DNA of 64,000 nucleotides from contig JAZGAD010000014.1 of NCBI GenBank assembly GCA_036444275.1, positions 8,131-72,130 on the forward strand, in the 5' to 3' direction. A program made the position numbers and the translations under genes. The notes under the pieces are model-generated. The model searched no databases. It worked only from the letters and a program-made list of their open reading frames with translations, and was not told the origin of the DNA. How positions within the stretch are numbered: position 1 is the first letter of the stretch; every line of letters starts with the position of its first letter. This document shows positions 16,954-60,846 of this stretch, piece by piece. This stretch comes from Candidatus Hydrothermarchaeales archaeon (GTDB lineage: Archaea > Hydrothermarchaeota > Hydrothermarchaeia > Hydrothermarchaeales > JAZGAD01).

Positions 16954-17193
16954 ATGTGGGGGGCAAGAAGCATGCAATTATCCCGAGTCGATAAACGCAT
17001 CATAAGCGTTCTAGTAGAAAAGAAGCCCAAGTCCCGTTCTACCTATCAAATCGCCAAGAAGGCCGGGATTTCTTGGTCTACTGCTATAGCGCACTGCTAC
17101 AAGCTCAAGGCAGATGGAATAATCGATGGAGAGACAGAGAAACCGAAATTTGGAAGCAGAGACACAATAGTTTGGAGGAAGAAGAAGGAATAG
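16954..17193 (+). CDS. Small winged-helix-turn-helix DNA-binding protein
   Basis: RIISVLVEKKPKSRSTYQIAKKAGISWSTAIAHCYKLKADGIIDG follows the wHTH layout seen in MarR/ArsR/TrmB-like small regulators. The start could instead be ATG 16972. It ends 30 nt before the giant ORF. Confidence 0.6.
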   Translation: MWGARSMQLSRVDKRIISVLVEKKPKSRSTYQIAKKAGISWSTAIAHCYKLKADGIIDGETEKPKFGSRDTIVWRKKKE

Positions 17194-47200: not shown

Positions 47201-50200
47201 CGCCCCGAATGGTAGCTTCAGCAATAACGTGACTGAAGGATACTCCCGCACCTTCTACGCAAGGTTCTATGACCTTGAGATAAGTGCGTTTGGCCATGTC
47301 ATAAAATTCGAGAACCTGAATGTGAGTGACCACTTGAACGATCCAATACGCCTCGACGAGTTCAAGGAGGGCGATATCTCAGAGAACAACTTGAATCTAC
47401 CTCTCGGAAGAAGGCTTCTGAAAGGCATTGGGGTTAAGACCAACTTTACGAATCTGACTACGGAGAAGGTGACTTTGATCCTCAACTACTCCGGTACAGT
47501 GCCAAATGATGAGGACTCGATAAAGATATACAGGTGCCCTGGCTCAAGCTGGACCTTCGAGCCAGATAGCGCGAGGGGATGCACAAACTGGGAGGAACTC
47601 GGAGGTACCCCATACAAGCCGGCGCAGACCATACAATTTGAGGTTGAAAACTTCTCAGCCTACGCTATCACCGAGGAAAAGCCAACAGTGCCTCAGATAA
47701 CTCTTACCGCTCCAACGGGCGGCGAGACATGGGCCGACAATCAGAGCATTACCTATACCTACTATGATCCAAACGGCAACAACCTGGATGTCTACATATG
47801 GTATAGCAACGACTCCGGTGCGACATGGAACTATATATATAATAAGACTTACACCGACACTGGTACTCAGAAGACAGGTTCCTATTCTTGGGATACTACA
47901 AGCAGACCAGATGGAAGCTACCTGATCAACATCACCGTCACAGATACAGATGGAATGACGAATGAAGACATCTCTGGAGCTTCCTTCACCATAGACAATA
48001 TCGACGATGATCCACCTACGGTAACCCTCACAAAGGAGCCCTCGGATTCGACGTGTTCCCAAGACCTATTCTTTGAGGGAAAGGCAATCGATGCGAGATC
48101 AAACATCAGCGCAGTAGAATACCGGGTGGACGGCGGCAGTTGGATAAACGCTACTCCAATAGATGGTGCCTTCGATTCCCTAGAAGAAGAGTTCAACTTC
48201 ACCACAGGTACCCTATCCTTCGAGAGCCATGCCATCGAGATCAGGGCTAACGACAGTTCTGGCACATCTGGGTATTCAACACCCCTCTACAAACCCAAAG
48301 AGGTTACGAGGGCCTGCCAGGAGATAAAAATACCCTCCGGCGGAGGTGGCGGTGGAGGTGGCGGTGGAGGCATCTCCCCCACCTGCGGTAACGGCATTTG
48401 CCAGCCAGGTGAGAACAGTGAGAACTGCCCACTGGACTGCGCACCCACAAACGCGACGAACGCATCAGTGATCATGCAGAGGGAGATAGAGCGCCTACGT
48501 GAACAGCTCGAAGAGATCAGGCAGACGATAAGTGATACCGCGAATGAAACCGCTGAGAGGGTAAGGACGATGCCTACGATTTCTCCCTTCACGATACAGA
48601 CGAATCTCGCTGAGGTAGAGCTTCATCCAGGAGAAGAGAAGTGGTATTCCATCTGGATAAGCAACCACTTGAGCAGGGACCAGAAGGCAAGGCTCTCAGC
48701 CATGGGCGTTGGAGCGCAGTTCATCGAGATGTACGTAGATAGTGTCAAACTCTTCACCGAGGCGACTGTCACCCTAAAGCCGGAGAGCACGCAGCACATA
48801 AAGGTCAGGGTCTATTCCCTGCCGACAACGATACCAAGCATATACACTGCCGATATCCTTCTGAGGGTAAACGGCCAGAACCATACCATACCTGTGACCA
48901 TAACTATAACGCCTGAGAGAGAAGCCCTGCTCGATGTCAAGGTAGAGGCGCTGACCAAGAGGCTCACTCCAGGGAAGCTCATCAAATATCACGTCTCGCT
49001 TTACAATCTCGGCTTCAAGAAGAAGTTCGATGTGCACATGGTATACAAGATAAAGGACGTCGAAACAGAGAAACTCATCGACTGGTACGAAGAGGAGCTA
49101 GCCCTAGAGACGACGCTCTCCTTCGTGAAAACATATCCAATGGAGAACCTCACCCTCTCAATCGGCAGTTACTTCATTGAGATAGAGGCGATATACGAGA
49201 AAAATAGGACCGCTTCTGCAGCTGATATATTCGAGATAGTGCAGCCGTTCTGGAATAGAACGAGGAGGCTGGGTGTTCTAGCTCTCATCCTGCTCATTAC
49301 TGCCAGCGCAGCTGGATATAGAGCTAGAAAATGGTACTTAGCCCAGAAACTCGCGAAGGCCAGATACCTGTTCCCAGTCGCGGAGGATAAGCTCCCCAAG
49401 GGCGAGCTCTGGCTCGGCAAGATAGCTGAGACAGACATCAAGGCAACCTTCGATATGGACGACCTCATGGTGCACTGTATCACTGCTGGTGCAACCGGCT
49501 CTGGAAAGAGCGTCTCGGCCATGGTAATAGTTGAGGAGGTATTGAAGCAGAATATACCGGTAATAGTCTTCGATCCAACCGCGCAGTGGACAGGCTTCGT
49601 TAGGCCGTGTAGAGCAGAAAAGATGCTTGCTTTCTATCCCAACTTTGGGTTGAAGGAGACTGACGCTAGGCCCTTCAAGGGTATGATCTTCGAAGTGACT
49701 GATCCCTTCGAGATGGCTGATATAGACTACCGCAAGTACATGAATCCAGGCGAGGTAACAATATTCGCCTTGGACAAGCTCGAGCCGCAGGAGTTCGACA
49801 AGGCGGTAAAGAACATCATTGACGCGCTTTTCAAGATATCCTGGGAGGAGTCGCCTCACCTCAAGGTCCTTATAGTGATGGACGAGGTCCATAGGCTGCT
49901 TGAGAAATACCTGTCGATGGGCGGCATAGTCTCGGAACTGGAGGGCTATAAGTCCATCGAAAAGGCATGCAGAGAGTTCAGGAAGTGGGGTATAGGAATA
50001 ATCATGGCCTCCCAGATATTGTCTGATTTCAAGGAGACACTTAGAGGAAACGTCATGACTGAGATACAGCTCTTTACAAAGGCAGAGGAGGACCGGCAGA
50101 GGGTAGCTGACAAGTACGGCGCAGAGTACGCCCAGAGGATAACCAAACAGGAGGTGGGCGTTGCACTCGTGCAGAATCCGAAGTACAACGATGGTAAGCC

Positions 50201-50459
50201 CTACTTCGTCAACTTCAGGCCTTTGTTGCATTCGCCCCACAAGATCCCTGAAGCGGAGCTCGAGACATACAAGAAATATGATGCGAGGTTACGAAAATGC
50301 GAGCTAATAATAGATGATATGAAAGCGAAAGGGATAGATACTTTCGACCTCGACCTCGAACTCAAGCTCGCGAATGACAAGCTCAAGCAGGGTGCGTTTA
50401 GGATGGCCGAGATCTACGTGGAGTCATTGGAGGGCAACGTGGAAAGGCAGATGAGGTAA
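17223..50459 (+). CDS. Giant (11,078 aa) membrane-anchored surface protein with C-terminal cytoplasmic HerA/FtsK-like ATPase domain
   Basis: Single uninterrupted ORF of 33,234 nt plus TAA. N-terminal hydrophobic signal/anchor ILAAWILPFILALAIFSSLL. About 23 kb of repeated beta-sandwich-like modules saturated with N-x-S/T. CARDB-like domains, poly-Gly, Cys-knot and one TM helix. Walker A GATGSGKS and Walker B VLIVMDEVH in the last ~380 aa. Confidence 0.9.
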   Translation: MKFKPPSRILAAWILPFILALAIFSSLLQPSSSITILNPNAHPKLGDNWSIHFSTTGSGILEIYDHSFPEEVEFIGLYAEIDDEYKKVQVSIKGDLITANWHYSSGEAIFKVLTPQEHSLEFRFGEQVVYAYNFADLLINLTAPSQVARGQVIEIGGEARNHDLADVSLIYVLPQGFEVVSGEKVKHCGTGYLCESSLVVDTSKAKLGEGVIKLQGCAYGVCESESINIFVDRVLTEKGEPVQEEVEVGKPVRWRQHIQVRNPLHAPVFNYSLPLPEDASGIAAPVIEEVKPGQKLGFDVIFYTGPVEVEEEDRNISLRSLIPKNALNIKIDGKVADAGALDIEIPAKLVRVKHNASLHYRDIPVSIGVSTKEVTVFYDANAGVLDVNSGQLEVVEGEVLGDQLTWVVPKLSEKRYWIAQVQRTQGKAEVNKTVGWTLKAGGTVVEYETPAPVMEEIPVENGTQMRVKSDVKYSNVTATASVPEGKNRTLRVNGKGEFKFADVPSFEVEATETGHALYWLNGSVELFNESRDVTSDSAHSVSFFDANGNGVNDSVTWNIPTLLEQNYLLQETAKVAEIRARVEDAKGYRLPVAPEIRLVDGKYKVTIPQGRGVKPGLYKLVVESEAGVEELWFKWGLISINTKKSMYHPGEEAEILMVVLDKEGHLVSNADVSFVVTNPIGVPTFFTTDDGSIVETQRGIYEASYLTFLESNYSLFATASADGVASTINSYFTVKEYYEFDILRDTPVTIDPQRGPFDSSIKVVSYTDASTFTLREYLPAEFSIVDAGGAKVTVVNDTKVLEWSDITNGSKVSYKFNTPYIWPYLYMMGPAEVEYASGTFIEARPWMLAVDPSTCEGNTCYEWFEDTPGYSASDGSTETYEWTPQSCPGTLNCYIQNITVKFRFTNPFSAIRTGFEIYFSNMSGGTTYYYPAYHGALSAGGQVGPQWACNYTDSAQPSGYLNNTCNLAPSDGFNKTTHNVTLVAPGKTLTDVLNIKYKWVWTPAMPQLSDVTVTPSSAGWGALRNFSAFYTDPQGDAGNVTLFAKTSTSGSFTSKNLTAITNGTTASIFYRFDITDFEALGVGWEYRLNASDNNTPPNSYLTSSYTFTVTKDATTFQNTEGDGAVINRSDSLPNNTVPLWSYIYDMENESLARANSAAGKIEGRIWINKNASAGYVGTDAHSAETDSDGKFKGTTELFNASGYFNPGCTYTTGQHVWYAETLAHTNYTQNDTLAINSGNNYTLYIWGTLSNSITSPDPPGKEYTVGENVPLYGTVYDDCSVLVTDANVTFRVYNATLGVDDNLTASYNPPQNRYEASWNSTGNSTGIYQVEMISNKSYHPVDTAQTNFTLVELITLNWTVVQGNGSISNRTGEEINTLVVRITDDATNPVTNENATLWITYDGTNSIQKITNESNSSGYLVYDFNATCDLDVGEQEWKLVMQDTTEFQNPNSWDDGNEYYTDIWGTTTLDFAYPIAGIYDMGGLIRHEGYVYDDCGSELDGATVNFTIVGPSTSPSPYYCENVEAPLAGLYKCNSTAGEGWDSSGMDEGWYNSTINVSKSYHYNNSVIKTNGTQSLFNLRLTPPDLFDADVQPRKDGWGKNYTFAVNITYAAGKNVSVLLYYQPQLMEEELLASTGNFTLPSYTYAVNFTDQTFNSTLVDKTVKFRYEIKYYPPGLGEQSVWTTITETGDYNQSNTTGVDDNEFYLEKDDVLLNYSAGNESTASLQVEATFVLRIWDITRGVWINATSTSVKFNVTKNWPSSENVTVNTTTTNATGYAFTDFLPDTSYSSGLQKWFGYIPDTDPYYKFNVSDIFDVNLSIHPPQLVNASVDKTTAGWGVNRTFSVEVTDTVDNATVSLWKTDTSGFVADTNWTFIAAKNYTDVGNWTQLNFTTSFSPSDIGGWYYKFNASDIAGNTNYTSESSYTFTVDKDDVILEYVQGDDSPANRSDNQIDRLIVKVKDENGSYIGNLSVTFKVTFDGSIYDTGTANNTNTSGYAIYNFNPGCSSPKYGVGVQNWTAVSSETNAYKSNSSSIYNLTIWGDNVITFDRPAPYPTGYYAVGDRVPFRVLIKDECGDELGKNEDSDKEVKFYAIGPDTSPQTYDCGTVSSSLTGLYECESAAGGWNTTGKSAGDYNATADVSLAYYYINNSINNRIVPERDNLTLASGSGWFRLYVPSQPPDLTAADVNPRKDGWGKNRTFSVNVTSPKSGKNITVVLEVKKSGEDYAQIGDAQNWTSGGTGSSKILEWNVSFYPANVSVLPYKFKFTATDEDLEEDVTNIPAEYTNTTPLEGIDENEFKIEKDDVLLNYTAGNGSLVNLQVEATFVLRIWDITRGVWVNTTSASVKFNVTKNWPSSENVTVNTTATNATGHAFTDFLPDTSYSSGLQKWFGYISDTDPYYKFNVSDIFDVNLSIHPPQLVNASVDKETAGWGVNRTFSIEVRDTVDNATLSLWRSSQIVGQPWYLIAEKNYTDVGNWVQLNFTTSFSPSLIDTWYYKFNASDIAGNTNSTDVVSTRNFTIDKDDVILEYVQGDDSTANRSGNQIDPLIVKVRDENGSYVGNLSVTFKVTYDGSNYDSGTPKDTNGSGYAIYNFDPVCTPTKYQVGVQNWTAEVLETNAYKSNSSSIYNLTVRAEFNNTITKPPGNENYTLGDTLTFQAVIRDDCNDNLDGVTANFYASNATVEYDCGNVTLILSGTGIYECTWASGLAEEGWYNVTLNTTLGNYHYYSDTTKYDQPGLFYLLFKEQPPDLNSANVTPRKDGWSLNRTFTVNVTSPKNGKNVTVWLELKKGGGSYNPEGDEQNWTSGGPGSFSILEWNISFSSTDVDLWFFKFQAKDADGVTDTTSLTESGDYVNDTNEFNVEKDDVNISYIYGNETEIATLSNPSTFILKICDEDANTCNLTPSAKVKFNVTKDGIGTDYYAARGTDGNDYNYTNGTGHVVFEFLPDTSWNSTKQSWIGYVVDDYYNFTTSGTYNVTVDLNKNPDILNETVNGVTEDAKQGWGFVFNFSVMVKDDKNTNTTVELWVDTANTTGSTYKKVNETLCESCGSDWKEINLTVRFNSSDIGPASYYFKAIDNTSNPNQTTSHAFTIEEDEVTFEVSPGSNGTNVIVNRSAAQGNLRLAVRLRDENTSYVGANASTTLYVTTSGSTFDSGRDIDTNASGYVNYDFLPTCSNPEYEVGLHNWYVKVKDSDSLYQPNQSEYYVFRVIGTLSNTITEPLGSPTYNQWQTILLEGNVYNYCGEGIEINNTLAGENLTFTLINGTNNYTCTDIVKSGVNTYKCYWAPFASNAIRGWYNLNMFSNKSGYYANETTRLNSFYLQTPPKLEDAKVDPTDEGWGYTFNFSVNVTDNIDDNVTVTFYDKRSGDESWTLVSEQNWTADGTTGRLYWNKSYASTYAGETMYFKFDADDTEGFDDTIGGVGESWEFKLRKDDVELLYIQGNESVVDRLGAQTTRFILYANDTDRAAQAYPPAATVYFNVTKDWENYTAATNLTGQNYNYTNASGYVTLDFNATCEQNVGKQKWIGYILNDDAYKDNVSAEFNVTVVGDLINNITQPDGEEYNQTDPVPLRGRVTDECGNSILGINDTVTFTVSNGTANYLCTPVEDQGNGYYNCTFDTNLSMAPGWYNITMNSSAGDNYNNATLTKQAFRLTPGNVEPYLSDAQVTPASEGWGITRNFSVEVMDLNSDDVNVILFLSPDGTNWVEIGNDTCPGCSNWQTLTFPYSFSRENYSTNNTWQFRFNASDGNVTVTLSNTTGAILERDNVSVVLDQGDGAIVNRSGDQTVSPILRLQVVDNDNSSITVAADVTGRFYVTVDNSSWGSAINKNTTTGGNLSLDFNPNCTSPKYYTGVQQWRGETNGDFYYDDNSSINYTLYIYGELIATIDQPNGTQTYAPGQNVTMEFNVVDECGDNVTGMTPQNFTVNLTHSNYSDLCTNIQVVGNGSYNCTWNSSGAVGGNYTIAIDLGKDYYNSNSTTRQDAFSINVAPTLENVGVDPTSNYWGTTFTFNVTVTDEDDTVTLKLWHRCISSLGTSDSCDSIRDWTQVDTTETCPDCTAELRQFTNTTGDTSVGIWEWFINATDQDGNEVNTTPENYTVTKRGVIISYNNKGNNSWVNRSDNNVTVLEVRMRDAENPTGWLTSSDGNGFYRVTTNGSNWGPNMTGAQLDSQGRLKGPGGADFEFDPTCTSPTYQTGEQKWSAVFNGTKKYYYNESANYTLYIRDYLINNITYPDGEPFDKNTYMDLNGTVVDSCGGVDNSTANVVFGFIRNLTGASVPPSCGAPTNPSGGNYTCNESLANDNFGYYHVWMNTTVNDYPYHPNITLYREFVFKVAATPELKDPVVAPTLQGWGYNFAFNVSYRDNEDLSGENNNISLYKAYNQSGPWYLIETKNEDYWTTTFKNITYYSTFNKSDLDNATAADGVIYFFFNATDTNSFTDNTTVKNFTIERDNVTVVATSGEGENVTRLGSGTILLQVQINDNDTAGQPAVAGANGSIFIIGVNKTTNITDASGYLSYNLNPGCSPLYPAGLNYWTGGIDGDAYYFDRNSSPNSNFTVIGQLYNNLTEPLQPTYNVTENITIKFYVTTDCSGEGNQTVSGRTITLIHNQSGANSSCGTINYNPADATYNCTWDPTGKPEGNYTIIINTSNQSFNSVSATWTNRFELINQPPVVDAVNLTVDPDEGGWGATYLYKVFVEDPEGDDVTCTLYVNTTGSWVEKGSNTTTGGVGNCSVTVDGFNKSDYDYNVTQANPISFMFEINDTGSNEPFNTSDTVGQVYQPALQEDNIQIIHIQGNNSEVNRSGVQATTFILLVNDLDKGTYLSNPNVTVKFNITTDGSNYQLDGSNFTNSTGYAIYNFDPNGTYDVGVQNWTAFVEGDTYYANNASAVFNVTIYGIFETLDAGPFNFSSNTFDKTYPRGENVTIRGNVTDDNSTLVSGATVNFTLVRNGVYYGCMPPIANGEGNGSYNCTFETGGKPAGWYNLSMNVTKGDFYYENTTIFEEFLFVETSPVLTNPQLNTSKNGDNIGGWGEKFNFSVVVTDEDGDTVYAVLWTRRNASYSWTEIENKSCTNCNNTVVYHEETGAYSCNKFDDSDLGTWEFKWNATDVASYPSTGDGDVYTNETVNESYTVEKDNVSVTLVSGNNETVWRNGSDSETLTVLVYDIDKEENPTTQAKGAIWVTTTTFNGSLEGTSYVSVFNDYANPSGQLTKNFDPSCSYEVGWQHWIGGTYGSECYMDANSTQGPFNLTMKSYLEGVVQNVNQTPPYYEVSEKINITFYVNDDCEGTYGGMGGADVIKLNLSSGGWSNEYTTGFIDYGNGTYVYEWDSAVGVYGWYNTSLELNQSYYYNKTGGDDNVTFDREELFYLDTRPLLQTAAVNQTDNGWGETWKFTVECKDSDGDPANLTLWKRLQDSPASEWEYVDSQTCSNTGFELKTFIETFNYTDITPAGNVTNYKFNISDPYDYGSELIGPEDITVEPDDIGYTTVVGDEEGVDRLGNDTVRLAILVVDQDRGNTPVLEGTGMTFNITSDYVTYDTIYPATVNSTGWMNLDFNATCTHLAGQQKWIGDEADYRYKGIPFGAFDVFVTGQLYTDLITPPDGQPYNVSDPVPTNLSVFTDCAPEGNVTGATVTIGFSPNETSWENFTATDGGDGYYNVTWDSTGNIEANWSIIANASLSNYTDNVTKWSSRFELINQPPVVDAVNLTVDPEEEGWGATYIYTVFVDDPEGDDVTCTLYVNTTGSWVEKGSNTTTGGVGNCSVTVSGFNKSDYDYNLSNPISFMFEINDTGSGEPFNTSDKVGAIYAPSFQEDNVSITYYGGDNGTTITRKLQSATFIFNTTDTDSGGVAYNASGAVWVTKTGSSDWDSGTSDTTNASGYLIVEIAPGCDYDTGVRNVMGGINDTYYEDVNTTESLMITLTGGMSLQAWSQNESDDQDQTIYRDDNLTIKANITDECGAQVDGVNVTFTLSNGSQNFTCSVNNESNGIYNCTIETNSTMSAGWYNMTLNSTKQNFAPNTTLFKNFLFIETEPVLTGAVVNSSQNGDNTGGWGETFTFNVTASDEDGDNMTVCLYLSKNGESFWQEYCNSTVNGINQLVSRDRIFPDDSWMGNWEFKWNVTDDGDDPITGDTKYNDTTLNISFIVERDDLSILEEDGDEATVSRLGDNKTLLNVSIRDIDKLENVSGFQDLLTKAYVTLDNYTWDWGKTKSVSGDYRYIEFNPNCSYSVGEQKWKFVTGDITEYKPTESDNYTLYITSILVPNLTEPQGGIYIKDSQDVIINATVEDYDTDCDPVDDSTVNFTFTNLDGTKYYAETTTPTVTSLGEGNYTYNLTAARNDGMKYGWYNVTVHANRSYYSNDEVVNYTVYKAFKLTSIPKFDPEDIVFTVPSGSGYYWGEPWTISVNIRDYDNDNVNVTLYKRKVGETSWDYLNDSLCDNDCQNTKTISFVQNFSCADRGDIEWNVTLTDLNNFTVSTTENQSINKDLSYVTHEFGGGETVNRTGLNKLPMIVRVADKTRGYVLVGSGVNGSFYITNGTDNVWAERYTNQTNTSSRLTLFFDPTENYTLGNQYWDGGVEGDNCYTNKNISTGNQTFNIKGQLLINMEQPTTNVTPVIVNDNVTIRFNVTTDAAWEGYQNETTSVDVQLSRDGSSVACTYGPYNEGNGSYNCTWVTVTLDGGMWNMTITVSKSPNYNTNVTLFENWFNLSNTKPNATDINVTPSTGGWGRNFTYRVFVNDSQQANVTCALYTNTTGDFVYKGNDTVAGGLGNCTINVTFSPDDITPSAEFYFVIDDGTEGNKFNTSTQTGPIIERDNITIAFVYNSTDEVNRSGTNSITFIFFVNDTDRQEGAYTPNATVGLYVTTDGENYSLANTSYTNSSGYVTFVFDPDDTYNAGVQDWKANVTGDYAYKDASTGVFNVRIWGDLGYQFEQPLGERIMRGQNVTVRLNVTDERATPVLISNASVEILLTSNRTGDDFTCQVENETSPAGIYNCTFLTNSSVPTGAYNITLTAKKSYYNNISTDIEYVFGVSSFFLETKPALESPTVVSRMANGSIGDGGWGEDWTFSVNVTDIDLDNVTVKLWLNLTGTWSDEGTAYVVGENQTVSFTFNDTDNVITSSHIGNRSFKFNITDSRFANETDIVNFTVYRDDVGFAVVSGNGSANRSSRPSFLLRVQMWDADTGDPVGTFRNARFYYTKDGNTSNYYTYSTNTGPGGEYAENTLDLSSIVKSCAYTIGPQYWFVDYNYDLASDSELKETNSTLYNWTLITDPLVVSIVSPVDEESRLKGVDSVNLTGRVTDDCVSELGGVENATVVFKIVGLSTTDTFTDVTNGSDGWYNYTINDTSGYQYGKYNVTMNVSKQYYNSTVEVEVDAFALASVPEVSGLDAEDDPSVNSYATESSWGEVWVFSATVKDADYGNGNVTLWVNNSGSWIPQNSTLRSFTSAGIGVSFKEYSLFTGDDVGVQYFKFNATDNYNYTDEKMANVTVNPDDLYIDYVSGGGDTVNREGSGTVRFIVTAYDKDRIMYLGAGRNGSFWVTTTGVVSGPRDSGTVNYTNGSGYLILDFDPDSNVHGVGTQYLDGGIYGDSWYVDRNLSQDDVTNYPVTIVGQLKVNLEQPYDPSGQYEAIVTDNITIRFNVSTDNTSMGPASDLQADATTSVEIIDFDGNVLPSACSSAGEGNGWYNCTWDTSIGGLLEGNYSIRINSSFTPNYNPNSTTYINLTRLINTEPNGTIANTTLNVTPPAGGWGENFTFTVNVSDTQGDNVTCILFVTTDNGTTWMTKGEKLITDTKPENKKICEINTTFTSDDITYSNNATFKFQLNDSTEGNIYNTTNGSGPVIEPDNVTVSYVFGGLRVNRTSDGSSSVPLILRIYDNDTEGYVPQGVNGTIWITVNGSDYDPGNSNLTNDSGYLIYNFTPSCSNYDLGVQYWIGGATDPAYERKNTTQNFTFEIQGVLETAITAPTGQPRYLKGSQNATLKGTVKECSADPNVDDANVTFKLTAKLTNQTYQCTGTLLSTGTYKCDLDFAAMDAGWYDVKMNSSKAYNYNDSVTSTDVFFVVSKPELSDANVTNRTGGWGERFTFTVNLTDEDEDNVTVGLYLNKDESWELKNSTSVIGNGSNQTVTLTYAGFTLSDMGVWEFYLNATDNSTCSPFCPNTVTTPVDNFTVEEDDVRFEVVAGDGEMVWRNGSASATRTLEVQVFDDDRNVSIDGPKLNFWITVNGTDWRLEQGGEGGDSNGYVDINFKPTCANGYQVGIQDWKVETTGTTLDYYKAVNSTNYSIKVQGELNLSILIPKYPSSYLAGTSVPLSGKVIDDCGADMDNTSTSVTYTFKRGGSEYSNSTTIYVGNGTYNSSWDNPPTVYGYYNLTMTVSKSYYGINSTKELNATFISSKPWLDDDTADLDFESGGDGGWGEDFTFSVQVFDNDLNEVNVSLWKRQQLEDGNWSNWSLIDSAMKNDTQWTYFTTSFTSSDMGLNSWKFIAVDTWNYTNETTVKNFTILPNDIEIKQYAEPGAVGRLLSPQTLGVKFKDSDRNEYTNGINGTIYITEKGYDTDHNWTYECVSENVGIFNGVCAVEYPPNCTSTIGIQNWIVELTDPRYKTPINYTKNITVKGQLNTTILTPSEDNTSVNRNTSVVLKVNVSDECKNTIDTAQVSWKNETEDEIAINDTKDGINGTYIATWNISGTYKLGPETIYATASSVDNYYDANFDTNYSDNIGVLVYGWSYIKTMSPANGTEVRAGNNQQVTCTVYDNSTGQSISDYNVSFYVDGVYRNSTTTVGATATWTWYVNTSHGNKNVSCDITDDSELYYNITSPNENSTIIKVDRPLLIDSISVSPDSIWRNDSFWPTKPIETTITVHVWDADLGNAVNATVWFNISDEINNISWSQTNSTGYANITYNPPYNLTPGMHPIRINATPANESLIAASATNLTEVQVRGVLNVNITAPPDPLLEFSFKKSETIWLNATVTSENGDVVNATVKWFNVSTVNIGLNDTNETMWDPDLLAQQDTGEDLLINATAYKDYYDTNSGYLFINITGTANVSWVSPTQGQQYPNPFNLTCNVTDSVSGAIISGYNVSFWYKYPNENFTYNGTIPTDSEGNATYIWTPPKPGEPYMTFMCNISDYTEENYKASDDKNSSSMNIPVTDMTPPFFDTFLVTPNESIEAWETINITVNVTDDKGINVVYVQIGEYNGTLQNYTMNNLTPVEPDEPAIYFYNYTPEWGGDYNATIYAEDTSARNNGNWSHTEYFTIWGKADGVTDNTPPPPSQVALYNIYYDRGQTFNLTINFTNNGDGTAYAVNLTIYDNQPTLVINYTPNYKYPNYMQLYDVNAGVTNLTEVNVTIPAATTARTIYIYGNVTWRNPDKTINSSIAQTVVLVYENPVLNVTDDSYQPELQLEDVRHGDKKEGTVIVQSIGNANIRNINISRDDGALDNLGTDCPYCNVTFNDDTVYSIPSLPLGVTSTVTVVVDVPFGQAPMSYTSHIKTISENAAAKTILMNVTVAGNATWYAETSYADPSTLGNITAFHPNQSGYTKGTMGKITLTNIGNVRISYAITVPHKNTEMNGTTIEVNGQYPPDPVSIPEPYLQPAGTKRTLEINYTIPTTADRGLYCKNIMIDVTKAEPVKVEDAKPFSLNIPFCLEVTDPKYNWSHSKTNISMEVIQGTDGFLGTLNITNLGNVEFYLEVNKSVEIIAVSNLTLGLGVNKTQEVSLNYSAPVTHELKNYTYYFKTVNASGEPTERITYINLTVQPYFINITQPTKDAQKKGVFGGDEILIRVNVTYNGTAVNDTGDMNWIVTLFNSTYSKDYTPSAPLDEVYDNVTEQFNLTILVPNIAQRAYDLKVTATYSPKNLVLADVENDAIVYNDTIDPVLNLVVPGEVTVGQSVEILLNVTDAGSINESTVSANITDPNQITFDLNMSSIDKQGDTYRYNNVSIPTLEGTYTIDVTACDVSGRCASNSTSFNAYIKVDINGTAKDSTSQLAEVSFKFYDNGTTNLAPNGSFSNNVTEGYSRTFYARFYDLEISAFGHVIKFENLNVSDHLNDPIRLDEFKEGDISENNLNLPLGRRLLKGIGVKTNFTNLTTEKVTLILNYSGTVPNDEDSIKIYRCPGSSWTFEPDSARGCTNWEELGGTPYKPAQTIQFEVENFSAYAITEEKPTVPQITLTAPTGGETWADNQSITYTYYDPNGNNLDVYIWYSNDSGATWNYIYNKTYTDTGTQKTGSYSWDTTSRPDGSYLINITVTDTDGMTNEDISGASFTIDNIDDDPPTVTLTKEPSDSTCSQDLFFEGKAIDARSNISAVEYRVDGGSWINATPIDGAFDSLEEEFNFTTGTLSFESHAIEIRANDSSGTSGYSTPLYKPKEVTRACQEIKIPSGGGGGGGGGGGISPTCGNGICQPGENSENCPLDCAPTNATNASVIMQREIERLREQLEEIRQTISDTANETAERVRTMPTISPFTIQTNLAEVELHPGEEKWYSIWISNHLSRDQKARLSAMGVGAQFIEMYVDSVKLFTEATVTLKPESTQHIKVRVYSLPTTIPSIYTADILLRVNGQNHTIPVTITITPEREALLDVKVEALTKRLTPGKLIKYHVSLYNLGFKKKFDVHMVYKIKDVETEKLIDWYEEELALETTLSFVKTYPMENLTLSIGSYFIEIEAIYEKNRTASAADIFEIVQPFWNRTRRLGVLALILLITASAAGYRARKWYLAQKLAKARYLFPVAEDKLPKGELWLGKIAETDIKATFDMDDLMVHCITAGATGSGKSVSAMVIVEEVLKQNIPVIVFDPTAQWTGFVRPCRAEKMLAFYPNFGLKETDARPFKGMIFEVTDPFEMADIDYRKYMNPGEVTIFALDKLEPQEFDKAVKNIIDALFKISWEESPHLKVLIVMDEVHRLLEKYLSMGGIVSELEGYKSIEKACREFRKWGIGIIMASQILSDFKETLRGNVMTEIQLFTKAEEDRQRVADKYGAEYAQRITKQEVGVALVQNPKYNDGKPYFVNFRPLLHSPHKIPEAELETYKKYDARLRKCELIIDDMKAKGIDTFDLDLELKLANDKLKQGAFRMAEIYVESLEGNVERQMR
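22341..23340 (+). repeat. Copy 1 of a ~1-kb near-identical intragenic duplication (offset 1,782 bp)
   Basis: gagaaggatgatgttctcctgaatta at 22341 matches 24123. The ~140-aa core LQVEATFVLRIWDITRGVW...AGWGVNRTFS..DTVDNAT.SLW differs at ~11 residues by my count. The antisense ORFs 22146..22685 and 24000..24467 begin with the same 33 residues. Confidence 0.9.
24123..25116 (+). repeat. Copy 2 of the ~1-kb near-identical intragenic duplication
   Basis: See copy 1. The offset shrinks from 1,782 to 1,776 bp at the distal end through in-frame indels. Confidence 0.9.
31200..31580 (+). repeat. Copy 1 of a ~380-bp near-identical segment (offset 3,081 bp)
   Basis: RFELINQPPVVDAVNLTVDPDEGGWGATYLYKVFVEDPEGDDVTCTLYVNTTGSWVEKGSNTTTGGVGNCSVTVDGFNKSDYDYN... 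recurs at 34281 with few substitutions and one 9-nt indel. Confidence 0.9.
34281..34652 (+). repeat. Copy 2 of the ~380-bp near-identical segment
   Basis: RFELINQPPVVDAVNLTVDPEEEGWGATYIYTVFVDDPEGDDVTCTLYVNTTGSWVEKGSNTTTGGVGNCSVTVSGFNKSDYDYN... Confidence 0.9.
48339..48440 (+). other. Poly-Gly run (33 nt) followed by Cys-knot motif CGNGICQPGENSENCPLDC
   Basis: ggc gga ggt ggc ggt gga ggt ggc ggt gga ggc at 48339-48371. Four Cys fall within 19 aa at 48384-48440. Confidence 0.9.
49270..49320 (+). other. Single C-terminal transmembrane helix of the giant protein
   Basis: RRLGVLALILLITASAAGYRARKWY: a hydrophobic 17-18 aa stretch flanked by basic residues. It is the only strong hydrophobic helix after the N-terminal one. 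Confidence 0.75.
49321..50456 (+). other. Cytoplasmic HerA/FtsK-clade (DUF87-like) P-loop ATPase domain
   Basis: HCITAGATGSGKSVSAMVIVEEVLKQNIPVIVFDPTAQW (Walker A at 49488-49511). LKVLIVMDEVHRLL (Walker B, ~49866-49898). ACREFRKWGIGIIMASQILSDF resembles the EGRK.G.G..L.SQRPS segment of HerA-like ATPases. Confidence 0.7.
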
Positions 50460-50471
50460 TTAAAGAAACAG

Positions 50472-52136
50472 GTGCGTGCTATGGCTGACGAAGAGAGGGA
50501 CCCGACATTACAGGAGATCTTACTCAAGCTTGAGAAGATAGATGGAAAGCTGGAGATAGTGGATAGATTCAGAGAAACCACTGACGAGAGATCCTCCAGG
50601 CTGTCTGAGCAGATAGGCGAACTGCGCACCATGCTCCTGGAGAGGGAGCGGACCTCGCGGAACATGGAGATGGACTTCGAGAAGATAAAAGTCCTGGTGA
50701 AAGAACTAGATCCAATGGCCCTTGTAAAGGAGTCAGAAAAGAAAGAGAAGAAGATCATCGAGAACAAGGTCAAGGTAGAGAAACTTGAGAACATGATCGC
50801 AAAGCTCGGTGAGGAGGTCGGAGCTTTCAGAGATGTGATGGAGAAGATAAAGAGCTTTGAGAACCTCGTGGAGATGGCCAAGGATGTGAAGAAGAAGATC
50901 TCAGATATAGAGGACAGTAAGAGATACACAGATAGGCTTGCTGGGAAGGTGGAGAGCATCTTCTCAGAGCTGAACGAGAAGATCCTAGAGCTGGAGGAGT
51001 ACAAGGGGAAGATAACGAAGGCAGACGAGCTGACCAAGGAGCTTGTGAAATCGACGGACAGGCTCGAATTAAAGCTCGGCGACGTAGCAGAAAGGACAGA
51101 TAGGCTTCCCACAGTTGTTGAATTCGAGGACAAGATCGAGGGTCTCGCTGCCTCGATGCGTTTCCTGACAAAGAAGATCAGAATGCAGGAGCTGGATGAG
51201 GTAAGCAGCGACCTGGGCAGAAGGATGAAGGAACTCAGCACAGGGATGCCTGAGCTGGAGAGGGTGAGGGAGCTTGCAGGGGAGAGGAGGAGAATCATGG
51301 AGCTCATGATGAGTGTTGATGAGGACTACAAAAAAGAATTAATTTCCAAGGAGAGCTACGAAGAGGTGAAGCGGAAGAACGAGGAGATGCTCAAAGGCAT
51401 CAAAGAGTCTATAAAGACAGATCTGGGCCACCTGGTGAGCTCTCTAGAAGTGGAAGTCGAGCAGGAACTGGAGAAGTTTGCTGAGACTATGCCCACCGAG
51501 GAAGAATTGGAGGCAGAGATAGAGGTGCCTGAGCCTCTGATTCCAGCTCCAGAGGAATTCAAAGCAGAAGCACCTGCGTTTGAGGCACCGCCACTAGAAA
51601 TAGGGGCAGAAAAAGGAGAATTTGAGAAAGCCTTTGAGAGGCAGGCAGAGGCTTTCCCAGAATTTAAACCGATTCCGCCGCCCGCTGGAGTAGAGCCCGA
51701 ACCGAAAGTAGTTAAGCCAGAGCTTAAGGTGGAGCCTAGGGTGGAGCCTGTGAAGCCGAGGATAGAACCAAAAGTAGAGCCTAGGATAGAGCCGAAGGTA
51801 GAAGCGAGAGTAGTTAAACCAGAGCCTCCGACGCCTGTGAAAGTACCGGTTGCCGCAGAGCAAGCGGTAAAGCCAGAAGCAGTAACTGTTAAGGCAGAAG
51901 CACCTACCCCAAAACCATCGTTGGCGCTTGAAAAATTAGATGCCGCTTCTATCGAGAATAAATTGAATGTAATAGAGACCGAGAGGGGGGTGGTTCAGAA
52001 CCTCCTTGATGGTCTTTCCGCTGAATTGGATTATAGAAAACGAGAGCAAATGGAAAAGAGATATGGGGATAGGCTAGAGAAGATATCTCAGACTCAAGCT
52101 GAGTTAAAGAAGCTGAAAGAGAGGGCAGCGCCCTGA
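50472..52136 (+). CDS. Long coiled-coil protein (554 aa) with P/E/K/V-rich repeat region
   Basis: Starts 13 nt (GTG 50472) or 22 nt (ATG 50481) after the giant ORF stop. It has heptad-like E/K/L composition throughout and no TM helix. Repeat block EPKVVKPELKVEPRVEPVKPRIEPKVEPRIEPKVEARVVKPEPP at nt ~51700-51830. Confidence 0.75.
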   Translation: MRAMADEERDPTLQEILLKLEKIDGKLEIVDRFRETTDERSSRLSEQIGELRTMLLERERTSRNMEMDFEKIKVLVKELDPMALVKESEKKEKKIIENKVKVEKLENMIAKLGEEVGAFRDVMEKIKSFENLVEMAKDVKKKISDIEDSKRYTDRLAGKVESIFSELNEKILELEEYKGKITKADELTKELVKSTDRLELKLGDVAERTDRLPTVVEFEDKIEGLAASMRFLTKKIRMQELDEVSSDLGRRMKELSTGMPELERVRELAGERRRIMELMMSVDEDYKKELISKESYEEVKRKNEEMLKGIKESIKTDLGHLVSSLEVEVEQELEKFAETMPTEEELEAEIEVPEPLIPAPEEFKAEAPAFEAPPLEIGAEKGEFEKAFERQAEAFPEFKPIPPPAGVEPEPKVVKPELKVEPRVEPVKPRIEPKVEPRIEPKVEARVVKPEPPTPVKVPVAAEQAVKPEAVTVKAEAPTPKPSLALEKLDAASIENKLNVIETERGVVQNLLDGLSAELDYRKREQMEKRYGDRLEKISQTQAELKKLKERAAP

Positions 52137-52137: not shown

Positions 52138-54204
52138 GTGATTAAAATGGTTCGACTAAAGGAAAAGATCAGATCTGTCATCCGCCGCAAGGAAAAGGAC
52201 TATGGGGAACCATATATCGAGGAGGACTACGGCCTTCCACCCGGATTCGAGGATGATGTAGGGATCGAGGAGTCGGAAGGCGAATATGTGCTCTTAAAGA
52301 TCTTTGAAAGAGAGAGCCCTGATATTGGATTCTCATACGCTGCAAACAAGATCGAGGAGTTAAAAAAGGATATATCCGCTCTTAAGGCAGAAGCGGATTC
52401 ACTATCAGGGGTAAACGCCACGCTGAGGGTGGATCTGGAGAGGCTTCTCCCCCTAAAGGGGGCGCTGGACGAGCTGAGAAAAGACATAGAAGAGAAGGAC
52501 GATGTAATCTTTGCGAAGAACCTAGACATAAAGAAAGTGAATAAAGCCCTCGATCGCATGCAGGTAGAAGTAAGCGAACTAAGGAGGGAGTTGAAAGATA
52601 GGGAGCGGTTGCTGGAGAGGGGTAATAAACGGCTGAAGCAGATGGAGGATACGACTCGGCTGGATGAGTTGGAGGCAGAGCTCAGCGAGCTCAGGGTGAC
52701 TGTTACGGAGCAGAAGGATACCCTCGCTATAAAGAGTTCTCAGGCAGAGGAATTCAAGCAGATGGCAGCTGCCCAAGATGAGGAGCTGAACACCATAAAG
52801 GCTACTTGGTGGCAGCAGGGCAAGGAATTAAAGAAGATGAAGATAGAGCTGGAGGAGAAGACGGGCATCCTATCCTCGAAGGAGGGCTTGATAGAGGAGT
52901 TGACAAAGAAAACTACGTCCCTCAACGAGGTATTGGAGAGTATGCGGCAAGATGTGGCTGATAGAGAAAAGAGGCTCTCTACGTTTGGGGACCACATATC
53001 CGATGCAGAGAACCAGCAGAAGAGGCTGGAGAAAGAGCTTCGAGAAAAGGAGGAGGTTATAGGTAAAATCACTAACAATTTAGGCAGAGCTGAGTCTCGG
53101 GTAGATGATTTGAGGAGCCAGCTAGAGGAGAGGGATTTGCAGCTGCAAGGGACTACGAAGAGGGTCAGAGAGCTTGAGGATACGGATAGATTCGAGGATT
53201 TAGAGGCCGAGCTTAGCAAGTTGAAGGTGACTGTTGAGGGGCAGAAGGATACCCTATCTTTAAAGACTTCGGAGGTTGAAGACTTGAAGCAGGCTGCAGC
53301 TGCCCAGGAGGACGAGCTGAGCACCATAAAGGCTACTTGGTGGCAGCAGGGCAAGGAATCAAAGAAGATGAAGATAGAGCTGGAGGAAAAGACGAGTATC
53401 CTCTCTTCAAAGGAGGCATTGGTAGAAGAGTTGAAGAAGAAATCTGCGTCCCTCAGCGAGCTCTTGGAGAGTATGAAGAGGGATGTAACTAACAAAGAGG
53501 ACAGGGTAGAGGAATACGAGGATAGGATCGGCCGTCTACACGGTAAAATAGGCGCCTTAAGGTCAGCTATAGGTATCGAAGAAGGGCAAAGAAAGAGCTT
53601 GAGTAAGAGATTATTTGGTGGTAAGAAGGAACTCACATTGGAGGACGAGTTAGACCTCCTGACAGAGGATATAACCGTAAATCAGGGCAGGGTCGTCGGC
53701 TATGACAAGAAGGTATCAGACTTAGAGATCCAGGTAGAGAGACAGAAAAAAGCCTTGGAGGAAAAGGAGGGGACCATCTCTGCAAAGACCAGCGAGATAG
53801 AAAAACTCTTGGATGTTTCCTCCTCCCTGAAGCAGGAATTAAGAGAATTAAGGGAGAAGACACCTGTGGAAGGTACCAAAGAGGTAGACGCGAAGGAGGC
53901 GGCCTCCCTAAGGCTAGCAAAATTGAAAAGAACAGTTGAGGGCGGACCCGAGGAAATAATCGAGGAAAAACCTGTAATGGGGGAAAGGGAAAGACTAGAG
54001 GAAGCTGAAAAGGAAGCGGAGAAGTTAAAGATCAAAAAAGAATTAAGAATGCTGGAAATTGAGAAGAAATCGACCGAAAAATTATTGGAGAGGCTTCCAA
54101 CTGCTAGTTTTGATGAAACAGAACGCAGTATGAGGGAAGCGAGCTATACGGAGAAGCTGACGAATATATCCCGCAGTATCGAGGAATTGAGAGAAAGGCT
54201 GTGA
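52138..54204 (+). CDS. Long coiled-coil protein (688 aa) with internal ~106-aa duplication
   Basis: Starts 2 nt after the previous stop (GTG 52138; alternative ATG 52147). Segments 52657-52975 and 53188-53506 are paralogous, with a ~70-nt almost identical core encoding TIKATWWQQGKE.KKMKIELEEKT. Confidence 0.75.
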   Translation: MIKMVRLKEKIRSVIRRKEKDYGEPYIEEDYGLPPGFEDDVGIEESEGEYVLLKIFERESPDIGFSYAANKIEELKKDISALKAEADSLSGVNATLRVDLERLLPLKGALDELRKDIEEKDDVIFAKNLDIKKVNKALDRMQVEVSELRRELKDRERLLERGNKRLKQMEDTTRLDELEAELSELRVTVTEQKDTLAIKSSQAEEFKQMAAAQDEELNTIKATWWQQGKELKKMKIELEEKTGILSSKEGLIEELTKKTTSLNEVLESMRQDVADREKRLSTFGDHISDAENQQKRLEKELREKEEVIGKITNNLGRAESRVDDLRSQLEERDLQLQGTTKRVRELEDTDRFEDLEAELSKLKVTVEGQKDTLSLKTSEVEDLKQAAAAQEDELSTIKATWWQQGKESKKMKIELEEKTSILSSKEALVEELKKKSASLSELLESMKRDVTNKEDRVEEYEDRIGRLHGKIGALRSAIGIEEGQRKSLSKRLFGGKKELTLEDELDLLTEDITVNQGRVVGYDKKVSDLEIQVERQKKALEEKEGTISAKTSEIEKLLDVSSSLKQELRELREKTPVEGTKEVDAKEAASLRLAKLKRTVEGGPEEIIEEKPVMGERERLEEAEKEAEKLKIKKELRMLEIEKKSTEKLLERLPTASFDETERSMREASYTEKLTNISRSIEELRERL

Positions 54205-59757: not shown

Positions 59758-60834
59758 TTATGTAATGAGCAGCTCTTCCTTGCCATCTTTCAGCGCGTTC
59801 TTCAATTCCACAGCTATGCGCCGCCCCATGCTCATGTTGGCGCCGTGGAGGATATAGCTGTATGGAGAGCCATCCATATAGGGATTCGTACCAGCTACTA
59901 TCCTAGCTGAGATCTCGAAGGCTATGAATTTCAGATTACGGGTTACCATGGTCTCAAGGCAGAAAGGACCTATCATGCCTGGGGGCGCTATCTCCTTAGA
60001 GACCTTCGTCAGGTTATCACCCATCTCAAGCACCTTCTCTAGCAAAGATTCCCTAGCGACGAGTGGAGTGTTGCCGACCACGACATAGCTGGGCTCAACG
60101 TAGTCGCTCTGCTCTGCTGCCGGAATTCTTGTAAGACCATCTATATTCGCTTCATAGCGTCTGTCCATCCCGAAGAGTTCCACTTCTTCTTGGAGTGGGG
60201 AATAGAAGTATGATATGTACATGTTCACCCCTGCAATGTAGTCCTGTATCGTGACATTCTCTAGGTCCTCGCGGCTTATGCGTTTCTTCCTCAGCATCTC
60301 CCTAGACTTGTGCTCGAAATCTGAGTAATTGTTCACTAGAAAATATCCTCTTCCCCCTCTAGCACCCGGGAATTTGACGATGGAAAGTACCGAAATATCT
60401 TTAGGGTCCTTGTTTTCGTTTGGCATCTCTACACCCGCCTTCTCCAGCCACTGACGCTCCAGCTTACGGTCAGCCTCCCACCTCAAAATACCTCTATTCC
60501 CGAGGAGAGGGACACTAAGTTCTTTCTCCACGCTCTCTGTGCCTAGGTATGCTACTAGAGAGCCATGTGGCACCAATACACAGCCCTTGTCCCTTAGTTT
60601 CTCCAGCACATCCTCCTGGAGCATATCCCTGTAATCTCCTACAGTGATAATATCGTCAGCTACTCTAAATCTCTTGTAAATTGAACTCCGGCCGGTTTTG
60701 CATATGGCAAGCGTCTTGAAGCCTTCATCTTTAGCGCCCTTCAGGATCTGCAGTGCTGAATGGCTACCCAAAGTTGCAACTGTGACCTCACGGTAGTCTT
60801 TAAAGAGCTCCAGCATCTCGTCTCTAGATATCAT
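59758..60834 (-). CDS. purP: 5-formaminoimidazole-4-carboxamide ribonucleotide (FAICAR) synthetase, ATP-grasp
   Basis: VATLGSHSALQILKGAKDEGFKTLAICK..., VPHGSLVAYLG, GNRGILRWEADR and FCLETMV match archaeal PurP. Confidence 0.85.
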   Translation of the reverse strand: MISRDEMLELFKDYREVTVATLGSHSALQILKGAKDEGFKTLAICKTGRSSIYKRFRVADDIITVGDYRDMLQEDVLEKLRDKGCVLVPHGSLVAYLGTESVEKELSVPLLGNRGILRWEADRKLERQWLEKAGVEMPNENKDPKDISVLSIVKFPGARGGRGYFLVNNYSDFEHKSREMLRKKRISREDLENVTIQDYIAGVNMYISYFYSPLQEEVELFGMDRRYEANIDGLTRIPAAEQSDYVEPSYVVVGNTPLVARESLLEKVLEMGDNLTKVSKEIAPPGMIGPFCLETMVTRNLKFIAFEISARIVAGTNPYMDGSPYSYILHGANMSMGRRIAVELKNALKDGKEELLIT

Positions 60835-60846
60835 CTTGTTCCTGAC

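Follow-up and report, generated by a model that had tools for sequence, protein, structure and literature searches.

A HerA-clade ATPase at the cytoplasmic end of a giant SPEARE-family surface protein from Hydrothermarchaeota

The locus described here raises the question of why an ATPase domain should form the C-terminal end of a giant surface protein, and what such a domain might do beneath the membrane. The window, that is, the whole stretch of DNA analysed, comprises 64,000 nucleotides (nt) of Candidatus Hydrothermarchaeales archaeon (GenBank assembly GCA_036444275.1, contig JAZGAD010000014.1, positions 8,131 to 72,130 of the forward strand), and the gene in question occupies positions 17223–50459 of its plus strand, with 11,078 codons, a stop and no internal stop codons; the same open reading frame (ORF), of identical length at 11,078 residues, is present in NCBI record JAZHCD010312760.1, a 112.8-kb contig of assembly GCA_044240385.1. 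The encoded chain consists of a signal peptide, an ectodomain of about 10,650 residues, one transmembrane helix and a cytoplasmic tail of 377 residues. It is a very large member of the SPEARE family from Hydrothermarchaeota, outside the DPANN archaea, and the family itself is already published. What the present analysis adds is the assignment of the tail to the HerA clade, a constant core module, a coiled-coil partner, the absence of type IV secretion system (T4SS) genes, and a step in sequence identity at the membrane between paralogues. In the literature, the family appears solely as "SPEARE" or "giant surface protein", and nothing relevant was found that links HerA to giant or DPANN proteins.

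The orientation of the chain follows from its signal peptide, the charges flanking its membrane helix and the distribution of its glycosylation sequons. A hydropathy scan of all 11,078 residues detects two hydrophobic segments only: the first, at residues 5–32 (MKFKPPSRILAAWILPFILALAIFSSLLQPSSS, hydropathy maximum 2.41), is the hydrophobic core of a Sec-type N-terminal signal peptide (17223–17321, plus strand; residues 1–33), and the second is the single transmembrane helix (49269–49325, plus strand; residues 10683–10701, hydropathy 1.74). The 15 residues before this helix carry a net charge of +1 and the 15 residues after it +5, placing the former outside and the latter inside. Moreover, the ectodomain contains 655 N-X-S/T sequons, or 61.5 per 1,000 residues, which is 3.5 times the expectation from composition-preserving shuffles (185 ± 11), and the 377-residue tail contains none. 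As a result, the protein is oriented N-out and C-in, as in type I membrane proteins, with the ATPase in the cytoplasm. The variable part of the ectodomain (17322–48338, plus strand; residues 34–10372, about 10,370 in all) has a strongly acidic composition with much Asn and Thr, and is probably heavily N-glycosylated and adhesin-like. A preliminary description, made from the letters of the sequence, had proposed a membrane helix at 49270–49320, three ATPase motifs behind it and a covalent tether to the extracellular chain. The helix coincides with the hydropathy segment, the three motifs lie in frame within one stop-free ORF, the ATPase is joined to approximately 10,680 extracellular residues in a single chain, and hydropathy, charge and sequons alike put it on the cytoplasmic side.

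The cytoplasmic RecA-like ATPase domain (49326–50249, plus strand; residues 10702–11009) carries, in order, an ARYLFP motif (49359–49376), the Walker A motif GATGSGKS (49488–49511), IPVIVFDPTAQW downstream of Walker A (49554–49589), the Walker B motif in VLIVMDEVHRLL (49866–49901), FRKWGIGIIMASQ (approximately 49977–50015) and a family motif, NPKYNDGKPYFVNFRP (50175–50222), all on the plus strand; Walker A, Walker B and FRKWGIGIIMASQ were read from the translated 3' end. Alignment to HerA proteins additionally marks REFRKWG (49971–49991, plus strand) as the putative arginine finger and an SQ pair as the putative sensor (49998–50015, plus strand). Walker A, the DE of Walker B (VLIVMDE), REFRKWG and SQ are invariant across 51 homologues.

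The assignment of this domain to the HerA clade rests on the agreement of four routes, namely profile matching, a PDB profile search, a single-sequence PDB search and fold comparison. Among Pfam families, the DUF87/HerA central domain is the top match (E = 2e-10; 41.6 bits, with the cut-off at 23.2), followed by HerA_C, with marginal matches to TrwB_AAD_bind (1.5e-4), T4SS-DNA_transf (4e-3), FtsK_SpoIIIE (21.5 bits, cut-off 24) and AAA_10. Of the NCBIfam models, CedD scores best (1.1e-12), followed by HerA, TraD and VirB4-like models, with CedD, HerA and TraD far below their cut-offs, and PADLOC returns a HerA match at 6e-15. A profile built from the 51 homologues and run against all PDB sequences retrieves Sulfolobus HerA 4D2I (1e-10) together with anti-phage HerAs and YjgR, with DotL at 0.012 and FtsK at 0.09; the single-sequence search yields six matches, every one of them HerA or YjgR. 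An AlphaFold2 model of the last beta-sandwich, the transmembrane helix and the tail is confident (predicted local distance difference test, pLDDT, 91.7; predicted template modelling score, pTM, 0.82), and the membrane helix appears in it as part of a continuous helix spanning model residues 49–82. Foldseek ranks HerA 4D2I first for this model (2e-13), then SIR2-HerA, DUF4297-HerA and HerA-NurA, with the TcpA coupling protein (5e-9), the STIV2 B204 packaging ATPase (about 1e-8) and FtsK (5e-8) at lower ranks, and no VirB4 appears among its top 50. The alignments pair DEVH with the EEAH of solved HerAs, REFRKWG with REGRK[FY]G, and ASQ with VSQ (VSQRP). In the DUF4297-HerA complex, the corresponding RK pair is a trans-acting arginine finger (PMC11291478), and the same role is proposed for REFRKWG on the basis of these alignments and that work. 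The tail is thus a HerA-clade member of the FtsK-HerA superfamily, predicted by the conservation of its motifs to be catalytically intact. The HerA/FtsK-type assignment made in the preliminary description is therefore upheld, and narrowed to the HerA clade specifically, since HerA heads the ranking by profile, by solved structure and by fold alike; neither a best match to an unrelated P-loop family, nor a lack of any match, nor an extracellular position of the domain was found.

The likeness to HerA has its limits. With characterized HerAs (4D2I, HerA-NurA, SIR2-HerA and DUF4297-HerA), the tail shares Walker A, a Walker B followed by His, the [RK]E[GF]RK[FWY]G motif, SQ and a helical region after the RecA core, but identity is only about 14–21%, and the window protein has a transmembrane helix and an ectodomain instead of the HAS barrel. 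No HAS barrel occurs in the AlphaFold2 model, where approximately 40 residues, forming a short hairpin, lie between the transmembrane helix and the Walker A strand (model residues 122–125). Furthermore, HerA is soluble, whereas the window protein is membrane-anchored and lacks a NurA, Mre11, Rad50, SIR2 or DUF4297 partner. FtsK, SpoIIIE, Streptomyces TraB and the type VII secretion ATPases EssC/EccC belong to the same superfamily and resemble the protein in being membrane-held ring ATPases with N-terminal transmembrane segments that move DNA or protein; however, their similarity to the tail is much weaker, they have several transmembrane helices rather than one, and they have no large ectodomain. 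As a separate observation, the window protein carries a 7-residue insertion after Walker B (residues 10894–10906, approximately nt 49902–49940), where it reads YLSMGGIVSELEGY as against YGGKGGY in 50 aligned homologues, and this insertion falls in the sole low-confidence loop of the model.

The tail of this family has previously been read as a restriction enzyme. In the original account of the SPEARE giants of Nanohaloarchaeota (Hamm 2019), the conserved intracellular part was interpreted as a type III restriction domain (PMC6642349), by which imported DNA would be cut. Pfam does report a ResIII match (2.4e-5) on the window protein, but this match is limited to the P-loop motor region of the tail and is weaker than the HerA matches, and no endonuclease domain or nuclease motif was found in the Pfam, NCBIfam, PADLOC, PDB or fold searches. 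A DNA-degrading tail is hence scarcely credible, and a later study likewise concluded against the restriction-domain reading (PMC10266531).

Alternatively, the tail has been described as "VirB4/TraG-like" (Reva 2023, PMC10266531 section 11), in an account where BNXNv_0298 is a giant membrane-anchored protein with such an ATPase and a coiled coil, and where the Ig-repeat ectodomain would serve as the conduit of a T4SS-like "straw" that injects effectors into a host. VirB4 and VirD4 do belong to the FtsK-HerA superfamily, and the weak matches to TrwB_AAD_bind, T4SS-DNA_transf, TraD and VirB4-like NCBIfam models, as well as TcpA by fold, speak in its favour. Nevertheless, HerA stands above every T4SS ATPase in all four types of search, the T4SS profile matches are marginal and without a significant stretch (DotL, 0.012), and the VirB4 N-terminal domain PF03135 is absent from the Pfam lists of both the window protein and the short paralogue BNXNv_0297 (P0114). 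We regard the straw as improbable, a judgement to which the gene neighbourhoods and the host genome, considered below, also contribute.

The chain as a whole has been shown to consist of two portions of different character: a variable N-terminal ectodomain and, joined to it through a flexible linker, a constant core module about 700 residues long. In the variable portion, protein self-similarity reveals diverged repeats of beta-sandwich type at approximately residues 960–8650 (nt 20100–43172); no tandem repeats were found at the DNA level in the giant gene, and these repeats are old and diverged. Across all 11,078 residues, Pfam gives only weak ectodomain matches, to MG2, PITM and Big_7, and no serine-protease, laminin-G/adhesion or toxin-like module. 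A run of 11 glycines (48339–48371, plus strand; residues 10373–10383) then links the variable ectodomain to the core module, whose first element is a Cys-rich mini-domain, CGNGICQPGENSENCPLDC (48384–48440, plus strand; residues 10388–10406). It is succeeded by juxtamembrane beta-sandwich domains ending in a conserved PFW motif (48441–49268, plus strand; residues 10407–10682), for which the model shows strands at 18–28 and 32–42, and then by the transmembrane helix, the HerA-clade ATPase and the C-terminal helices. These last (50250–50456, plus strand) comprise three helices at model residues 380–405, 411–425 and 429–447, with a conserved motif, LELKLANDKLKQGAFRMAEIYVESL, and the positions E416, L419, K423, K425, G427, F429, M431 and Y435 are 90–100% conserved in the 51-homologue alignment.

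The constancy of the core module is evident from short members of the family, of 550–700 residues, whose entire ectodomain aligns with the juxtamembrane beta-sandwiches of the giant. From N- to C-terminus, such short members consist of a signal peptide, a CGNxxCExGENxxNCPxDC motif, one to three beta-sandwiches, PFW, the transmembrane helix, ARYxFP, the ATPase and the C-terminal helices, and the window giant repeats this series of elements from residue 10388 onwards. The Cys motif is located 465–515 residues before REFRKWG in 44 of 76 family ORFs, both long and short (it is also present in family members P0030, P0043 and P0009), and a linker rich in Gly, Ser and Pro usually precedes it. For one SPEARE protein, proteomics has placed ectodomain peptides above 315 kDa and transmembrane and cytoplasmic peptides only below 315 kDa (PMC6642349); processing near the Gly linker, splitting the ectodomain from the transmembrane-cytoplasmic part, is a possibility that we infer from this pattern.

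The fusion of ectodomain, membrane helix and ATPase is by no means confined to the window. Published SPEARE proteins include NAR1_1133 (5,998 residues), that of Ca. Nanopetramus SG9 (8,553), SVXNc_0300 (9,409) and BNXNv_0298 (8,880) (PMC6642349, PMC10266531), and relatives have been noted in Woesearchaeota, Aenigmarchaeota, Micrarchaeota and Altiarchaeales (PMC6642349). The window protein shares with them a signal peptide, a repeat-rich giant ectodomain, a single C-terminal transmembrane helix with a cytoplasmic end, a homologous intracellular ATPase, a C-terminal coiled coil and a downstream coiled-coil gene. The name-giving ectodomain modules were not found, and tblastn over the 64-kb window returned no short ATPase paralogue downstream; Reva et al. 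dispute that protease, laminin-G or toxin modules define the family at all (PMC10266531). It also differs from the published members in its origin, since it derives from Hydrothermarchaeota and those are from DPANN archaea; in the extra SMC-like coiled-coil gene of the window; in the short paralogue, which is described downstream in SVXNc and BNXNv; and in its length, which at 11,078 residues exceeds any reported from a cultivated archaeon but falls short of a 15,808-residue relative from Woesearchaeota.

Homologues of the tail, at up to 59% identity, occur in Aenigmat-, Woese-, Pace- and Nanohaloarchaeota. Identity amounts to 50–58% with BNXNv_0298, the 15,808-residue Woesearchaeota protein and a protein of at least 10,543 residues, and with BNXNv_0298 (locus L003) it is 50–52% over the full tail. 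At least 558 genomic relatives of the tail were recovered from GTDB species representatives; in the best 80 loci, the ORF that terminates in the ATPase is nearly always a long one, of about 1,150–3,100 residues or running off the 10-kb flank, and the ORFs of 550–730 residues are mostly second copies behind a giant. A HMMER search over 1.84 billion cluster representatives gave 353 clusters (50% identity) at E ≤ 1e-30, with the ATPase forming the C-terminal end, or lying close to it, in proteins of about 360–7,878 residues. Taken together, the 150 best cluster representatives and 84 loci place the ATPase at or near the C-terminus behind ectoproteins of 450 to 15,808 residues. The survey of orthologues proposed in the preliminary description thus finds nearly all relatives fused, and the tether, which it had implied to be an oddity, turns out to be the norm in the published SPEARE family (PMC6642349; PMC10266531).

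The same survey bears on whether the fusion could be an artefact, in which a sequencing error joined the gene of a giant ectoprotein to that of a separate membrane ATPase. Short stand-alone genes encoding ectodomain, membrane helix and ATPase do lie directly behind giants in other genomes; yet the giants of those paired genomes themselves end in the transmembrane helix and ATPase, and the fusion recurs in dozens of independent assemblies. In the window, the junction is of the standard kind (poly-Gly, Cys motif, beta-sandwiches, membrane helix), with no remnant signal peptide, and the orthologue from Ca. Hydrothermarchaeum profundi, which lies on a 1.9-Mb contig that provides the best genomic relative of the tail, is collinear with the window giant over the last 3,772 residues, junction included (identities of 39% for the ectodomain and 49% for the tail). 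A fusion or assembly artefact was accordingly rejected, its probability being negligible.

Long and short members occur as tandem pairs in several other genomes, where a giant is followed by a short gene: 15,808 and 699 residues in Woesearchaeota, at least 10,543 and 553 residues in a second case, and 8,880 and 628 residues in Ca. Nanohalovita haloferacivicina. Within such genomes (loci L001, L002, L003, L025, L046 and L052), the cytoplasmic domains of the two proteins are 77–89% identical, and the 190–250 residues just outside the membrane are 23–36% identical; the step between the two values falls exactly at the transmembrane helix and the ARYxFP motif. Across lineages, the cytoplasmic domains are 55–70% identical, and in one closely related trio, the values are 94–97% between long members, 92–95% between short members and 84–87% between long and short. 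On the evidence of these comparisons, the sharp step at the membrane suggests gene conversion, or a constraint limited to the cytoplasmic domain, either of which would be expected if the long and short proteins build one ring and bind one partner. A comparable pair of membrane-anchored HerA-clade ATPases is known in CedB and CedD of crenarchaeal DNA import (PMC11868833), which resemble the present family in an N-terminal membrane anchor followed by a HerA-like ATPase, and whose pairing parallels that of the giant and short proteins. The resemblance is nonetheless partial: the CedD match reaches 47 bits against a cut-off of 600 and lies mainly in the Walker A region, the window protein lacks a VirB4-like N-terminal domain, its surroundings contain no genes for pilins or a CedA/CedE channel, and a giant ectodomain is absent from the Ced proteins.

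Directly downstream of the giant, beginning 12–21 nt past its stop codon, lies the gene of a soluble coiled-coil protein (50472–52136, plus strand; 554 residues, or 551 in the NCBI call), homologues of which also occur downstream in family loci. Such a homologue directly follows the ATPase gene or genes in 68–69 of the 84 loci, and the N-terminal 200 residues of the homologues are 30–49% identical, with invariant residues that include an E-x-I-G-E-L-R motif. The partner has no transmembrane segment; its AlphaFold2 model contains long helices only (pLDDT 76, pTM 0.28), Foldseek found no neighbour in the PDB with E < 0.6, and no Pfam family or PDB entry matched it, Pfam, NCBIfam and PADLOC giving coiled-coil noise (Rad50, SMC, LmuB and DUF6218). 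Where its homologues are annotated, they are called "chromosome segregation ATPase", a name that reflects their coiled-coil character. The partner appears to be an undescribed, dedicated family, for which the C-terminal helices of the tail are a candidate docking surface.

In the window, this gene abuts a third one of the same operon (52138–54204, plus strand; 688 residues), which encodes an SMC/Rad50-like coiled coil without an ATPase head. Its profile matches, to Rad50, SMC and LmuB among neighbours, cover coiled-coil regions only, with the ATPase heads absent, and it is conserved solely in Ca. Hydrothermarchaeum profundi (L004, 37% identity), whose giant has both downstream genes as well. 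As an additional observation, its product contains an internal duplication, the segment ...TIKATWWQQGKE..KKMKIELEEKT... occurring twice. The neighbours of the giant are thus coiled-coil proteins, and no NurA/Mre11/Rad50 or SIR2/DUF4297 operon partner was found. A defence-system HerA was considered as a separate candidate and rejected, the effector partner being absent and the architecture membrane-bound.

Clustering of all ORFs in the 84 neighbourhoods revealed no conserved family beyond the ATPase protein and the partner: neither a polytopic channel, nor a pilin, nor a second ATPase type such as VirB4 recurs across them, and the same holds for nucleases, relaxases and further DNA-processing genes. 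A neighbourhood with the partner alone argues against the published T4SS reading, for which a VirB6/CedA-like channel, a pilin and other T4SS genes would be expected, and for a self-contained two-gene module. The host context also speaks against the T4SS reading, as the family is present in a Hydrothermarchaeota genome of about 1.9 Mb with its own purine and F420 biosynthesis genes, in which injection into a host is unexpected.

On this basis, a mechanism may be proposed, by analogy with known HerA-type machines, to which we give an even chance of being correct: a SPEARE-family, HerA-like ring lies under the membrane, bundles ectodomain chains and, together with the coiled-coil partner, moves a polymer. 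The ATPase domains would form a HerA-like hexameric ring, flat beneath the membrane, with the transmembrane helices in the position that the HAS barrel takes in HerA. An effector docks on the HAS face of solved HerA complexes, and DNA enters at the opposite base (PMC11291478); by analogy with these complexes, the pore would run at right angles to the membrane plane. Several ectodomain chains would be held in a bundle by the ring, which in genomes with a short paralogue would be a mixed ring of giant and short subunits. Fuelled by ATP, the ring and the coiled-coil partner would then move or pull a polymer along this axis, at the site where the ectodomain grips another cell or surface. The substrate would most likely be nucleic acid, a first guess based on homology with HerA, CedB/CedD and FtsK, with polypeptide as the alternative.

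Several observations weigh against this ring-and-partner mechanism. Six single transmembrane helices provide no obvious channel wide enough for DNA or protein, and the 84 neighbourhoods have in common neither a polytopic membrane protein nor any gene for DNA processing, whether nuclease, relaxase or otherwise. The canonical HAS barrel is missing, with about 40 residues between the membrane helix and the Walker A strand. No second ATPase copy was detected by tblastn in the 64-kb window, so that without a short paralogue there, a ring would consist entirely of giant chains or of fewer than six of them. In addition, the size fractions reported for one SPEARE protein (PMC6642349) are split, and its parts are possibly cleaved from one another.

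Some of the same evidence serves the main rival, mechanical anchoring with the coiled-coil partner, in which the ring and partner would tie the fibre to a cytoplasmic scaffold, and ATP would assemble, tension, retract or release the fibre, a form of inside-out control, while nothing crosses the membrane. A channel component is never conserved in the 84 loci, the sole conserved partner is a long soluble coiled coil, to which Hydrothermarchaeota add an SMC-like second one, and the tail shows strong conservation in its C-terminal helical region, all of which would suit an anchor. On the other hand, known HerA/FtsK-type rings work on polymers threaded through their pore, and Foldseek against the PDB recognised no cytoskeletal fold in the partner. 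An anchor of this kind is, in our estimation, doubtful.

The preliminary description had also suggested that the ATPase might power export or assembly of its own giant ectodomain. To move 10,650 residues across a membrane is demanding, the ATPase is covalently joined to the putative cargo and, to our knowledge, archaea lack SecA, all of which could favour a self-export motor. The protein has an ordinary N-terminal signal peptide, however; translation reaches its ATPase at the very end, once the ectodomain has emerged; and members with ectodomains of 150–300 residues keep a fully conserved ATPase, which means that the motor does not scale with the cargo. Signal peptide, translation order and short-ectodomain members thus disfavour this option, and we consider it quite improbable. 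The two other roles raised in that description, hexamerisation of the chains at the membrane and inside-out control of a surface structure, are plausible.

If the ring-and-partner mechanism is taken further, the core module and its partner might tentatively be regarded as a previously unrecognised class of self-contained archaeal trans-envelope machine, although we hold this broader proposal to be possible rather than probable. Such a class would not be a T4SS, because channel, pilin and VirB4 are never conserved with the core module, nor would it be limited to host-dependent DPANN archaea. Its rings would be mixed in many genomes, combining one or a few giant subunits with several short ones whose cytoplasmic domains stay nearly identical to those of the giants while the outer parts diverge freely, and they would couple ATP either to DNA or protein transfer at cell contacts or to mechanical work on a megadalton fibre.

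Other features of the window give the setting of the giant gene. A 79-residue winged-helix ORF (16954–17193, plus strand), with weak HTH_24 and HTH_11 matches, ends 30 nt upstream of the giant's start; small winged helix-turn-helix ORFs are also found immediately upstream of long ATPase genes in loci L018 and L020, and in another clade, a small ORF with a transmembrane segment and a coiled coil lies upstream of the long ATPase gene instead, in seven loci. The AT-rich gap upstream of the giant contains a toxin-antitoxin-like pair (15399–16063, plus strand), in which the ORF of an 85-residue MazE/AbrB-type antitoxin (Pfam 1.5e-9) overlaps the start of that of a 135-residue PIN_3 protein (6.7e-26). 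On the minus strand, at 8602–14130, a second large surface protein of 1,842 residues is encoded, with a signal peptide, MG2, NPCBM_assoc (NEW3) and a Pro/Thr-rich stalk; it ends in a C-terminal transmembrane helix followed by about 85 residues of cytoplasmic coiled coil with no ATPase, and similarity to its ectodomain is seen in parts of the SPEARE ectodomains of 34 loci. Two antisense ORFs, at 49338–50240 (minus strand, 300 residues) and 50414–51307 (minus strand, 297 residues), lie opposite the ATPase and partner genes and are artefacts, which owe their apparent conservation across loci to that of the sense strand. Neither Rfam nor tRNA scans gave a match in the window.

Further genes of the window code for NrdJ, NrdD, three KaiC-like proteins, two PurP paralogues, CofC and HtrA. 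Adjacent ribonucleotide reductases are found at 43–4244 (plus strand), comprising a B12-dependent NrdJ (E = 1e-298) and an anaerobic enzyme of NrdD-like type whose score falls short of the NrdD cut-off. At 5785–8539 (minus strand), three genes for KaiC/RecA-like ATPases lie in a row, and in one 387-residue product, a small-GTPase domain (TIGR00231, 1e-17) is fused to an N-terminal part resembling KaiC. The tandem PurP paralogues and CofC, of F420 biosynthesis, are located at 59758–61941 and 63140–63760 (both minus strand), and the closest named PurP relatives are from Hydrothermarchaeaceae (70–73%) and Ca. Hydrothermarchaeum profundi (68%). Together with the collinear giant of Ca. Hydrothermarchaeum profundi and its two downstream genes, these relatives assign the window to a Hydrothermarchaeota archaeon and not to a DPANN symbiont.

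Giants of the SPEARE type rank with the largest proteins of archaea and are the leading candidates for the means by which DPANN archaea grip and exploit their hosts. Their presence in Hydrothermarchaeota, with genomes of about 2 Mb and biosynthetic genes of their own, indicates that the function of the family is not specific to host parasitism. The family is widespread, with at least 353 sequence clusters, and earlier annotations of its cytoplasmic tail were in conflict, one calling it a restriction enzyme and the other VirB4/TraG. The refined picture, of an intact HerA-clade tail, a core of about 700 residues carried on ectodomains of any size, a dedicated partner and no accompanying secretion-system genes, makes the function of the family more directly testable, and the core-module family supplies soluble domains that are fit for expression.

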